64,000 bases of DNA from an uncultured Verrucomicrobiota bacterium (GTDB lineage Bacteria > Auribacterota > JABMQX01), in contig CAYZXL010000006.1 in assembly GCA_964482435.1 (NCBI GenBank), positions 64,661-128,660 on the forward strand, in the 5' to 3' direction. The notes beneath the pieces are model-generated. The model saw only the letters and a list, made by a program, of their open reading frames with translations. It ran no database searches and was not told where the DNA came from. Positions 23,828-34,380 of this stretch are shown piece by piece; position 1 is the first letter of the stretch, and every line of letters starts with the position of its first letter. The position numbers were made by a program, and so were the translations under genes.

Positions 23828-26800
23828 CTACGGCGCCATCACCCTGTAATAGCGCTTCTTGACGCCGGAAACATCCTCACTGGTCCAGCTGGTGGCCGTT
23901 GTGGGCCAGGTGCCGGGAGCGTTTGCCCATGTCCCGCTCACCAGGTCATCCCTCTGCTGCACCGTGTACTGGCCGCCTCCGAAGGCCGTCCAGCTCAAAG
24001 ACACCGCGTTTCCAACCTTGCCGATGTTAGGTTTCGGCGTCGGGCGAACAACCCTTTCGCCAGAGAGCTGAACCTGGTCAATAGCGAACCAGTAATCCCA
24101 CTTGGCGTCGTAGAAATGCCAGCTCAGCCTGATCTTCCTCCCGCCATATGCAGAAAGGTCCAACAGCTCAGGGCTGCTGTCGGTGCCAGTGGTGGTCGTC
24201 CTGTCCCAGCGACGCAGGTTGACCCAGTTGCCCCATACTCCGTTCTCGAAGACCTGAATGCCCACCTCCGCAACCTGGAGATGGTCAAGGTCCTCATATG
24301 CACGGTAGTTCTTGTTGAAGCTCAGCCTCAGCTTCATGTGGTTGGTGCAGTCAATGTCCTCGCTGACGAGCCTTTCATCCAAAAGCGCATCCGGGGCAAG
24401 GTCGCTGTCGGTAATCATGTACTTGTCGTACATCCCGACCAGATTGGGGTCCTGGTTGTTCAGCAGCGGTCCTTCCGTGTCCCACAGCCGCCATGCCGCG
24501 TCCGCATACCCGGAGCCGTTCTCGATAGTCCAGCCACCAGCCTTCACGTCAGCGTCCGTGCTGTAGGTGTCGAAAGTGTCGGACCAGATGACCTCTCTCG
24601 TCGGAGGCGTCCAGCCGAAACCGACACCAATCTTGTCGAAATTGAACACATCCTGGTCGGGGATTGGTCCCTGGGCTTCGACCCTGAGGAAATGTTCACC
24701 GGTGTCTTTCTCTTCGAACTGGTCGAAAACGACGTACGTGTACAACTGCCACTGCCCGGTGGGGAAGGTGGAGAAGGTCGCAGCTCCGACCGGAGCCTCG
24801 TCCCAATAGGCCGCGATGGTAGCCAGAGACTGCCCCGTCGCAACTCGGAAAACGAGCTTTATCCAACCCGGCTGCGTTACGTTGAACCCGTAGCGCCACC
24901 AGCTTCCCGGCCTGATCCATCCAACGTTGGTGTGGTAAACGTCAGTTGTGCCGTAGTCGAGGACGGTCTCGATCCCAACCGCATCAAGCGGCCGGTACGT
25001 ATTCGTACCTGTTTTGTTCGGATGCCAGAAGTCGTACTGTTGCGGTGTGCCTATGTCGGTCGCCGACGGAGCTTCAATTGCGGGTATTGCCGTCCCTTTC
25101 ACCCACGGATACATCCCTCCGCCGAAGTTGAAATCTTCCGCTTCCCTGATCGTCATCGCCGGAAGCGCCGCCTCCGCCGTCGGCTCAGAGGCAGGACCTT
25201 CGGCTCCGACTGCGTTAAACGCCGATATTTTGTAACTGTAAGTGTTTCCGGAACTGACCGAGGTGTCCATGTAAGTGGTTCCGCTCAACGTGGCGATGAG
25301 CTCCCACGAGCCACTGTTAACGCTCCGGTAAACGTTGTAGCCCGCGACCCCTTCCTGCCCGGGGGCGCTCCAGCTCAGGTGAGTCACGAGGAGCATCTCC
25401 GCATCCACGTTCACTGGCGCGGAAGGTAGCTCGTAAATCATCTGATCGCCGCCGACGGGCTGGTTGGTGACCAAGCCGTACGACAGCGTTCCCGAGAATC
25501 CGACAGTCCCGGCCTGCGACGCCGGAACGCCAAGAGAGTAGGAAAGAACCCGGCTCGTAACCTGGGCGCCGCTGAAGGTCCACGTGATGAACCCACCGGC
25601 CGCCGTGCCGCCCGGCGAGACAGAAACAACCGTGAAATCGCCCGCGGGGATTTGCTCCCTGAGCGTGACGCTGCTCGGAGGCGTCCCCGGTTCGACGTGG
25701 ACGTATATCTCGCCGTTGACGTTCGTCCCCGCCTGATAGCTCGTCGGGAGAACGCGCGCCGTCTTCACCGGAGTGGGCGGGTAGGCCGTGATTGCCAAGA
25801 TATTGAACCTGTTGTCAGCGCTTGGCGCCCCAATTGTGCTGTCGGGGTCGCTCTCCATGAAGACGATGTCGGTCAGCGTCCTGTTGGTCTGCGCCGCGCC
25901 AAACTCAAACGCGAACAGGCCAAAGTCGGAGGTTGCTGTACCGGTTGCCCGCATCATCCCACCGATGGCGAGCGTTAACGGCGCTGGCGGCGTCCTCGGC
26001 GGAGAACCCAGATACCAGTCCTGCGAAAGGAGCAGGAACTCCTGCGTGGAAAGGTCGTTATAGACAAGCTGAACCTTCAGCTTGTCGGTTGCGCTTCCGC
26101 CGTAGCCGTTGCCGGCGCCGGTCAGGAATCGCAGCCTCTCGAACACGCCCTGCTGACCGGCCAAAGAGAACGTCGTGTCGCCATCGTCCAAAAAGACGGA
26201 AAACATGTTGACGGCGTCGAAGTCACCCAACTGGAAGTCCTGAACTTTCTTGTCAGAGGGGAGTCCCGGCCAGCCGCTGAACCCGTTCTCGATGAGGCAG
26301 TCTCCCCCATTGTCGAAGCCGTCTCCGGGCTGAGTTCCCACCGCGAGGCTCCGGATTCCATCGCGGTTGAAGATGCTGGTCATGTCTAACTTCCTCGCTT
26401 CGATACCACCATCGCGATCGAGGACCAGTATATTCAGCGTCGCCGTCGCGCTGTGCTGCCCCGCGCCATTGTCCACCGTGAACTCAAACGTCAGCGTTGT
26501 GTCCACAAAGACCGGCACTGCCCGGAACGTGGTGTTCGCCTGAGTGTCGTTGGCTATGTTCACTGTCGGCCCTGCTATCTGCTTCCACTTGAAGTTCATG
26601 CCGTGGACTGTTCCCCCGCCTACGAGATGAGCCTCTGCTCCCTCCTGGACCACCGTGTCTGTTCCTGCCGTACTGATGATCACGGCGTCGGCGTCAACCA
26701 CCGTTATGACGACAGGGGCTGAGGAGCTGCGCGACTGGCTGTCCGTTACCGTCAACCGGAAAACGAAATCCGTATTCCCGATGATTATCGGCGGGCCGGA

Positions 26801-34380: not shown

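Follow-up and report, generated by a model that had tools for sequence, protein, structure and literature searches.

A tandem pair of giant, predicted secreted paralogs from an uncultured PVC-group bacterium belongs to a rare family with two exchangeable module slots

Background

Non-catalytic proteins that combine several carbohydrate-binding modules (CBM) or lectin domains are the means by which many bacteria find and hold polysaccharides. To our knowledge, almost nothing is known about this step in uncultured lineages of the PVC group (Planctomycetes-Verrucomicrobia-Chlamydiae). The DNA analysed here, a stretch of 64,000 nt from the assembly of an uncultured Verrucomicrobiota bacterium (GCA_964482435.1, contig CAYZXL010000006.1, positions 64,661 to 128,660; hereafter the window), carries two giant genes in tandem, named G1 and G2. 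An earlier note, made from the letters alone, had described their products as diverged paralogs with lectin, PKD, discoidin, FN3 and CBM6-like modules and had suggested adhesins or polysaccharide-capturing surface proteins. The locus raises the question of what such proteins may do and how two of them came to stand side by side.

Here, we present a computational analysis of this gene pair and its relatives. In our assessment, G1 and G2 are probably proteins that are exported by the Sec route, have no catalytic activity and bind glycans multivalently, with a specificity set by the combination of their modules. Both belong to a rare family shaped by ancient duplication and gene conversion. Export, glycan binding and the lack of catalysis are predicted from the domain content, and a role in adhesion or polysaccharide capture would be in line with it. 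No published literature on this family or its combination of domains was found, and exact-sequence look-ups of G1 and of the proteins P0146 and P0147 returned no record.

Results and discussion

Two paralogous genes share one plan of 13 modules

G1 and G2 lie head-to-tail on the minus strand, each with a length of about 4.9 kb as described before (Table 1). An AGGAGG ribosome binding site is located 7 nt upstream of the G1 start codon; the ATG of G2 at 34380 is preceded by GGGGGTG, and its open frame extends further to a GTG at 34443. Judged by eye, both N-termini have the appearance of a Sec signal peptide of their own, as had been claimed, with MKAIRFSGLVGLTAIVLLAGAQMAVMA ahead of T in G1 and MKTTRHFSIGLILSMFILLCVSNLAFG ahead of A in G2. 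The paralogy of the two proteins is beyond doubt because their BLASTP match (966 bits, 43% amino acid identity over 1469 columns) is far above chance. Identity between G2 and G1 is 40.7% in the first constant core and 57% over 660 columns in the second. On the nucleotide level, the C-terminal third was expected to be 75-80% identical; the measured values are 69.0% (BLASTN, 1,609 nt) and 69.8% (codon alignment, 516 codons), and 77-82% is confined to a tract of approximately 470 nt (G1 residues ~1375-1530, window 24140-24607).

Both proteins follow the same order of signal peptide, slot A, PKD, FN3, discoidin, PKD, PKD, slot B, Ig-like, FN3, CBM6, MAM-like and tail, with the module boundaries of G2 mapped from G1. 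The similar domain order noticed earlier therefore applies to the plan as a whole, but not to the two positions here called slots A and B. Slot A of G1 is an L-type (legume-like) lectin, scoring 35.6 bits against Lectin_leg-like (PF03388, cut-off 24) and E = 7.9e-16 against Lectin_L-type_dom (PF18483), the latter under its cut-off of 78.3. In slot A of G2, no Pfam hit to an L-type lectin was obtained, and the lectin is thus restricted to G1. The module of G2 at this position has homologs only in L008, P0290, P0291, P0292 and P0152, and three homologous proteins were found among 5.8 billion. The slot B type of G1 is unique among the 17 full-length family members compared and has just four homologs in the 5.8 billion proteins, namely P0286 (with two copies), P0287, P0288 and P0289. 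Slot B of G2 resembles ConA-like domains through a similarity to DUF1349 that lies below the threshold (E = 0.019-0.09). An AlphaFold2 (AF2) model of a chimera that joined slot A of G2 to slot B of G1, calculated from a shallow alignment, had a mean predicted local distance difference test (pLDDT) score of 54 and was unusable; its Foldseek matches (peptidylglycine alpha-hydroxylating monooxygenase, birnavirus VP2, CBM22) are generic double jelly-rolls and were discarded as uninformative.

Table 1. Positions of the gene pair, its modules and related features (window coordinates)
Feature	Coordinates	Strand	Description
G1	23828..28729	minus	4,902 nt, 1633 aa; predicted secreted multi-module protein with L-type lectin in slot A; open reading frame and translation
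G1 slot A	28007..28648	minus	L-type (legume-like) lectin, residues ~39-241; Pfam match
G1 constant core 1	26420..27997	minus	PKD 27740-27997, FN3 27440-27727, F5/8 type C/discoidin 26999-27370, PKD 26690-26962, PKD 26420-26677
G1 slot B	25760..26407	minus	all-beta module, residues ~775-990; no Pfam hit
G1 Ig-like and second FN3	25169..25753	minus	Ig-like 25439-25753, FN3 25169-25432
G1 CBM6-type module	24614..25156	minus	residues 1192-1372, starts REAEDFNFGGG
G1 MAM-like jelly-roll	24044..24607	minus	residues 1375-1562; tract 24140-24607 shared with G2
G1 tail domain	23831..24028	minus	C-terminal beta-sandwich of ~65 aa, ending YYRVMAP before the stop codon
G2	29458..34380 (from ATG)	minus	4,923 nt, 1640 aa; predicted secreted paralog of G1; open reading frame and translation
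G2 slot A	33685..34293	minus	all-beta module, residues ~30-232; no Pfam hit
G2 constant core 1	32056..33669	minus	PKD 33409-33669, FN3 33100-33396, discoidin-like 32638-33009, PKD 32341-32601, PKD 32056-32328
G2 slot B	31390..32025	minus	ConA-like, residues ~786-997; weak DUF1349 similarity
G2 constant core 2	29461..31383	minus	Ig-like 31072-31383, FN3 30802-31065, CBM6 30256-30786, MAM-like 29683-30249, tail 29461-29667
G2 putative conversion tract	29776-30249	minus	in MAM-like domain
G2-G1 spacer	28730..29457	minus	728 bp; predicted terminator, then promoter-like site and long leader before G1
Tail instances	23831-24028, 29461-29667, 52852-53040 (approx.), 59400-59580 (approx.)		~65 aa

In the first constant core, three stretches of each protein match K319L-like_PKD (PF22352, cut-off 27 bits), with 114.5 bits for G1 and 119.4 bits for G2. 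The discoidin segment of G1 scored 30.8 bits against F5_F8_type_C (threshold 28.2 bits) when excised and 25.7 bits within the whole protein; the corresponding segment of G2 scored 22.6 bits, which is below the threshold, and the two segments are homologous to each other with 48-52% local amino acid identity. For the first FN3 (G1 residues 335-430), the family profile A4 retrieved titin, contactin and other FN3 chains from the PDB with E values down to 2e-13, this lowest value referring to two-domain chains. The second FN3 (G1 residues 1100-1187) reached 23.9 bits against Pfam fn3 (cut-off 25) and matched titin FN3 in the PDB with phmmer at E = 1.8e-7; with the second core of G2, phmmer found the Fn3-like protein 3mpc at E = 2e-4. 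The Ig-like domain (G1 residues 993-1097) had no significant match in the PDB with its profile A3.

The CBM6 module was assigned by means of a profile (A1) from the alignment of G1, G2 and 12 homologs, 14 members in all. Against the PDB, this profile matched 8zvk (E = 3e-20), the CBM6 of CtXyl5A (2y8k/5g56; E = 1.8e-12), CBM6-2 of Cellvibrio mixtus (1uxz; E = 5.6e-6) and LamC of Zobellia (5fui; E = 2.7e-5). Pfam CBM_6 matched 10 of the 14 members (best E = 1.8e-10), and several of the 23 homologs found for the C-terminal 444 residues carry precomputed CBM_6 and InhA-like MAM hits. In Foldseek, the AF2 model of the C-terminal region (pLDDT 80) matched CBM6 structures at 22-27% identity with template modelling (TM) scores, relative to the target, of 0.67 (5fui) and 0.69 (1uxz); for 5la2/2y8k the values are 24% identity and a root mean square deviation of 3.3 over 185 columns. 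The hallmarks of known CBM6 domains, i.e. the N-terminal EAEDF strand, the GWI...W..Y motif and the C-terminal N-x-D motif, align as well, including the conserved W (GWI) and N (NFD) of A1 with CtCBM6. On account of the family profile against solved structures, the fold comparison and the Pfam hits in homologs, the predicted CBM6 assignment is confirmed at the profile and fold level. Known CBM6 domains occur in glycoside hydrolases and in non-catalytic proteins such as CBM6E of Saccharophagus, a 'putative polysaccharide-binding protein' (8j3x). In contrast to these, the G1/G2 module has an insertion of approximately 35 residues after the EAEDF strand, shares its chain with a MAM-like domain and a tail instead of an enzyme, and remains below detection by Pfam CBM_6.

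The following MAM-like domain is matched by InhA-like_MAM (PF20773) in 3 of the 14 family members (best E = 1.4e-6). The MAM part of profile A1 had no sequence hit in the PDB; by Foldseek, the MAM-Ig module of RPTPmu (2c9a, E = 3.8e-7) and the MAM-containing enteropeptidase 8zi4 were found. The tail of G1 was modelled by AF2 as a sandwich of five strands with pLDDT 83-88. Catalytic families were not found in G1 or G2 in searches of Pfam, NCBIfam and the PDB, and sorting or anchoring signals (T9SS C-terminal domain, PEP-CTERM, LPXTG and similar; T9SS, type IX secretion system) were absent both in the whole proteins at E <= 0.1 and in the isolated tails at E <= 10.

In summary of the per-module Pfam and structure check that the earlier note had proposed, PKD, lectin and the CBM6 fold were recovered, F5/8C passed the threshold in the excised segment of G1, and the slot modules of the chimera were not resolved. 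The combination of lectin and CBM6-like modules holds for CBM6 in both proteins, but for the L-type lectin in G1 only. Predicted modules of carbohydrate-binding type (L-type lectin, F5/8C, CBM6 and ConA-like) are present, and the pair is thus not made up of generic Ig-like domains only.

A rare multi-copy family with exchangeable modules at two positions

When one genome per species was scanned, 50 loci related to the C-terminal cassette of the pair were obtained. Strong cassette matches (34 loci, L001-L034) originate from four metagenome-assembled genomes (MAGs), namely JAUYEE01 with 17, CAZXGF01 with 8, CAZFAP01 with 5 and JABMQX01 with 4 loci, where the records of CAZXGF01 and CAZFAP01 are labelled Verrucomicrobiota. 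The remaining loci (Verrucomicrobiota-labelled, Acidobacteriota, Bacteroidales, Chloroflexota) show weaker similarity or similarity at the level of MAM only. Complete family genes mostly encode 1,580-1,700 aa and carry the cassette at the extreme C-terminus. An exhaustive profile search detected the full cassette in approximately 25-30 of 1.84 billion cluster representatives, mostly 1,577-1,713 aa in length. G1 and G2 are two members of a rare, lineage-restricted, multi-copy family. This membership, together with the cassette-like exchange of modules described below, had escaped the earlier note.

For the analysis of the slots, an alignment of 17 full-length members was made, and the two stretches that aligned poorly were excised. 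The two slots hold nine sequence clusters, two of which occur in either slot. According to Pfam, the types comprise the L-type lectin, Laminin_G_3, CBM9, a GH115_C-like module and a weakly DUF1349-like ConA-type module; a second weakly DUF1349-like type and three types without a Pfam family complete the set. Most of the identifiable slot modules are of carbohydrate-binding types. The lectin type is located in slot A of G1, L007, L020 and L029 and in slot B of L001 and L029, and the slot B type of G2 sits in slot A of L014, L015, L018 and L019 (44% identity, E = 1e-39). Comparison of the nine types with hhalign gave no relation (best probability 18%). The idea that all slot modules diverged from a single ancestor was therefore rejected, and replacement of modules was preferred. 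Since two types occur in either slot and the types are mutually unrelated, the scaffold is constant, with two defined positions that accept interchangeable, unrelated modules in a cassette-like manner.

Two observations concern the assembly of family members. The 80-nt overlap between the end of contig JAUYEE010000143.1 (L008) and the start of JAUYEE010000323.1 (L029) contains a single mismatch and gives rise to an in-frame TAG at the edge of the contig. Because short-read assembly broke inside the repeated cassette, the copy numbers of the family in MAGs are probably underestimated. Furthermore, a G1-type member in ENA ERZ27249619, contig k141_824752 (L054, 6714-11617), is split in the annotation into two genes that abut each other and encode 1095 and 538 aa; the halves add up to 1633 aa, the length of G1, so that the contig may contain a frameshift or sequencing error.

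Ancient tandem duplication and later homogenisation of the MAM-like domain

The age of the pair was assessed from synonymous sites and synteny. The proportion of synonymous differences (pS) between G1 and G2 is saturated outside of the MAM-like tract (0.63-0.75, and 0.63-0.82 in the comparison with that tract; 0.715 in CBM6). In JAUYEE01, L008 is a full-length ortholog of G2 (60% amino acid identity) at a contig end. It is accompanied by a divergently oriented gene for a lamin-tail domain (LTD)/CotH/TSP3 protein in the same manner as G2, and the two neighbours share 61.6% amino acid identity. The 80-nt contig overlap places the lectin-headed L029 directly downstream of L008. On the basis of saturated synonymous divergence (dS) and of the same order of G2-type and lectin-headed genes in JAUYEE01, the tandem arrangement is ancient and predates the split of these distant genomes.

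The old tandem duplication proposed before is supported by these data, but not as a simple one, as part of the 3' similarity is attributable to a later conversion in the MAM-like domain. At G1 residues 1375-1530, pS drops to 0.36-0.49, and identical residues are encoded by the same codon in 71% of cases within the MAM tract versus 35-48% elsewhere (Fisher p = 1.4e-6). In addition, the trees differ between regions. In the core 1 tree, G2 groups with L008 (100% bootstrap), and in the CBM6 tree L008 groups with L029 (100%). In the tree of MAM-like domain and tail, G1 groups with G2 (100%). All five members from JAUYEE01 form one clade there, in which four are united at 97%, and all three from CAZXGF01 fall into another. 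The MAM-like and tail region thus groups by genome and not by ortholog across the family. The dN/dS ratio (omega) between G1 and G2, a comparison the earlier note had called for, is lowest in FN3, CBM6 and MAM-like (0.11-0.22); the C-terminal modules, with an omega of 0.1-0.2, are under purifying selection. Lower pS, codon identity and reversed topology argue for gene conversion, or another exchange of 3' ends within the genome, by which the MAM-like domains of G1 and G2 were apparently homogenised after the duplication. The history of the pair is, by these patterns, a mosaic.

Comparison with a sister strain

The JGI contig Ga0373630_0000731 of a sister strain is collinear with positions 13.8-53.3 kb of the window. 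Housekeeping genes differ between the strains by a dS of 0.04-0.12, with PNPase at 99.9% amino acid identity. G1 and its ortholog P0144 are 94.4% identical (dS 0.152), and G2 and its ortholog 90.8% (dS 0.252), with omega of approximately 0.2 in both cases. Divergence between the strains is patchy, with 100% identical blocks beside blocks of 75-85%. From these comparisons, the two genes are under purifying selection but recombine more than their neighbours. Conversion between G1 and G2 since the strain split was considered and rejected, as four-sequence site patterns gave 5 concerted versus 9 cross sites.

A patch of G2 at approximately 30170-30270 (corresponding to G1 residues 1371-1402) contains 17 private substitutions and one extra codon within 30 codons. 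Across these ~100 nt, G2 of the sister strain equals G1. This indicates a putative short recombination tract acquired after the strain split, with uncertain donor and direction. A diversity-generating retroelement was rejected as its source, since the changes, compared with G1, show no specificity for adenines.

A 571-aa open reading frame (ORF) at 23714-25429 on the plus strand lies antisense to G1, and further long antisense ORFs are found inside G1 and G2. None has a call in the annotation of the sister contig, and they are probably artefacts of high G+C content.

Predicted function of G1 and G2

In the proposed mode of action, the L-type lectin or other ConA-like modules, discoidin, CBM6 and MAM-like modules would bind glycans, and the PKD, FN3 and Ig-like modules would space these apart. 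The combination in slots A and B would provide each paralog with its own specificities, in addition to those of the modules common to all (discoidin, CBM6 and MAM-like). The constant C-terminal cassette would serve a function common to all paralogs, such as tethering or assembly. The present pair arose by ancient tandem duplication, followed by homogenisation of the MAM-like domain through gene conversion.

Several points weigh against this interpretation. Glycan binding is deduced from predicted modules with putative ligand contacts, and G1 and G2 alone gave no CBM_6 or MAM hit in Pfam at E <= 10. Slot B of G1, slot A of G2 and the Ig-like domain (993-1097) could hide other activities. The signal peptides are putative and were judged by eye, and neither protein showed an anchor, a lipobox or a known sorting signal, leaving retention at the surface unsupported. 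Regarding the history, the trees are neighbour-joining trees on short segments, the orthology of G1 and L029 is positional only, with G1 on a long isolated branch in the core 1 tree, and the grouping of G1 with G2 in the CBM6 tree has a bootstrap of only 48%.

Among known systems, surface glycan-binding proteins (SGBPs) of Bacteroidota such as SGBP-B of B. thetaiotaomicron (7kwb) are similar in that non-catalytic exported proteins carry glycan-binding domains on Ig-like spacers, for G1 and G2 by prediction. The SGBP-B structure was among the Foldseek matches of the C-terminal model, and the best, non-significant profile match of the Ig-like domain is an SGBP (E = 0.17). SGBPs are lipoproteins encoded beside SusC/SusD. 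In contrast, G1 and G2 have neither a lipobox nor SusC/D neighbours, are three to four times longer and belong to a dispersed multi-copy family of a PVC-group lineage. The lectin of G1 (39-241) passes the PF03388 gathering score and is thereby comparable to ERGIC-53/VIP36 and legume L-type lectins (PF03388, PF18483, PF00139), but is the bacterial N-terminal module of a 13-module protein and is missing from G2. With respect to evolution, Leptospira ligA/ligB and neisserial opa are paralogous surface-protein families with partial gene conversion, in which, as in the family of G1 and G2, one region is homogenised per genome, others diverge, and short tracts make mosaics. The family presented here differs in that the C-terminal MAM-like domain and tail, and possibly CBM6, are homogenised, that variability stems from replacement of whole modules at two fixed slots and not from point or segment variation, and that no machinery for phase or antigenic variation is evident for G1 and G2.

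A tail domain and alternative explanations

The tail ends with (F/Y)YR(V/I) and was detected by an iterated hidden Markov model (HMM) in G1, G2 and the beta-helix ORFs 52849..54168 and 59042..62917. It forms the end of the former ORF and lies near the end, but internally, in the latter. Of 50 tail instances in the window and related loci, 38 are located at most 12 aa from the stop codon. No matching model exists in Pfam or NCBIfam. A look-alike of the tail (..AFYKVEVYY) ends the LTD/CotH protein beside G2, beyond the reach of the iterated HMM.

This distribution is compatible with a different view of the pair, in which the C-terminal end, especially the tail, is a lineage-specific tag for docking to a common partner or for sorting along a common path of export or attachment. 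On this view, an extracellular assembly that degrades polysaccharides would contain G1 and G2 as its substrate-targeting subunits, in analogy to dockerin-cohesin or the T9SS C-terminal domain. As in dockerins and T9SS C-terminal domains, the tail is a small C-terminal module on many otherwise unrelated secreted proteins. It recurs at or near the C-terminus of beta-helix ORFs, family members often adjoin genes for beta-helix or pectate-lyase-fold proteins in other MAGs, and the clustering of MAM-like domain and tail by genome is expected from co-evolution with one partner. However, gene conversion alone explains this clustering without a partner, the tail is internal in one of the beta-helix ORFs, and it matches no sorting-domain model of NCBIfam or Pfam. 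No partner, cohesin-like receptor, T9SS genes or other dedicated secretion genes were identified, so that the likeness is one of distribution only. The uniformity per genome leaves plain repeat conversion and co-evolution with a common partner as possibilities, and docking as the role of the tail appears doubtful to us.

Slightly more speculative is an extension of the glycan-binding interpretation to a combinatorial lectin-display platform. Here, the 13-module scaffold would present at least nine unrelated binding modules at two slots, and the genome-uniform MAM-like domain and tail, which follow the constant CBM6, would be the handle for a surface-attachment or export system that also serves tail-bearing beta-helix enzymes. 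We consider this rather improbable in its complete form.

A use in attachment instead of nutrient capture is unlikely. As cell-to-cell adhesins, G1 and G2 would bind glycans on host, prey, algae or biofilm partners, and the repertoire of paralogs would track the diversity of target surfaces. Architectures of discoidin, MAM, L-type lectin, PKD and FN3 domains are typical of adhesion proteins, and G1 and G2 show the same composition. Their dS above that of neighbouring housekeeping genes and their patchy, mosaic divergence are often seen in surface-exposed interaction proteins, and the linkage to a giant LTD/CotH/TSP3 protein recurs in three genomes. Against this stands that omega of approximately 0.2 gives no sign of positive selection at the gene level, and that CBM6, CBM9 and GH115_C-like modules as well as beta-helix neighbours point to polysaccharides.

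Finally, the view that no conversion took place and that stronger purifying selection after a single old duplication created the C-terminal similarity, for which the low omega of FN3, CBM6 and MAM-like, the saturated CBM6 and the 48% bootstrap there may be cited, is highly improbable and for the MAM tract already contradicted by the sequence patterns, because protein constraint can neither lower pS (from approximately 0.7) nor raise codon identity nor flip the tree topology between core 1, CBM6 and MAM-like plus tail.

Putative separate expression signals of G1 and G2

The spacer between the genes contains a predicted intrinsic terminator, as described earlier. Its hairpin begins 26 nt past the G2 stop codon; the stem of 11 bp (29432..29406), 8 of them G-C pairs, encloses a loop of 5 nt, with CGCTTTTT directly after the stem and a T-run at 29402-29398 (TTTTT). 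The 68-nt terminator stretch folds at -33.5 kcal/mol (z = -3.0), and the hairpin is the strongest of 16 terminator-like sites in 22.5-36 kb. In the sister strain both stem arms are identical, with just two changes, both in the loop. With a G+C-rich hairpin and a U-run downstream of the stop codon, the site has the predicted features of a rho-independent terminator.

The spacer is 97% identical to that of the sister strain, including a stretch of ~100 nt without change, and is thereby more conserved than the coding DNA of G2 (dS 0.25; 88.7% identity in the 5' region). A sigma-70-like promoter site at 29198..29170 would provide G1 with a leader of ~440 nt. An Rfam scan of 21-36 kb, spacer included, gave no RNA family, and a search for a regulatory motif shared upstream of G1 and G2 yielded chance 8-9-mers only. 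The terminator and the conserved spacer support the assumption that G1 and G2 are transcribed separately, each from its own putative expression signals, as had been proposed.

Genomic context

The window is chromosomal, with genes for SMC, MnmA, BioB, FabG, FabF, PNPase, RibF, TruB, IF-2 and NusA, and large secreted beta-helix, FG-GAP/TPR and LTD/CotH proteins are interspersed among these housekeeping genes. Relatives of the PNPase at ~55-64% identity are labelled Verrucomicrobia, Chlamydiae, Auribacterota or Planctomycetes, with the closest tier at 71-79%, and the host is accordingly placed in an uncultured PVC-group lineage by sequence comparison.

Divergently oriented to G2, positions 35295-41135 on the plus strand encode a protein of 1946 aa in which three lamin-tail domains are combined with CBM4_9, a CotH kinase-like domain and bacterial TSP3 repeats. 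A giant gene of the LTD/CotH type is also found 4 kb from the G1-type member of the ENA contig k141_824752. On the other side, 119 bp downstream of G1 and on the same strand, a 249-aa outer-membrane beta-barrel protein (OMP_b-brl, E = 4.4e-8) is encoded at 22959-23708 (minus strand), with no obvious terminator in between. As a conserved partner of G1 it was rejected, since it is kept in the sister strain only and is not found beside family members in other MAGs. Further away, an ORF for a periplasmic sugar-binding protein (11750-12766, minus strand) shows an apparently permuted order of Peripla_BP_4 (profile positions 1-118 at residues 217-335), for which a wrongly chosen start codon, a frameshift or a rearrangement of domains could be the reason.

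Conclusions

The pair belongs to a known kind of protein, the secreted multi-CBM/lectin proteins, and presents no new principle. Its distinctive features are the fixed two-slot scaffold, the lineage-restricted multi-copy family and the concerted evolution of MAM-like domain and tail. Three of the slot modules are new beta-rich domains outside of known families, two of them in G1 and G2. The family is a natural experiment with different binding modules on the same scaffold, in which specificities could be mapped module by module. Two processes act on the same genes, the exchange of modules at the slots and the homogenisation of the MAM-like domain and tail within the genome, and the latter raises the idea that attachment or export in this lineage uses the cassette or tail as a common handle. 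If this were true, the handle system would correspond in function to dockerin-cohesin or the T9SS C-terminal domain, but outside of their known phyla.

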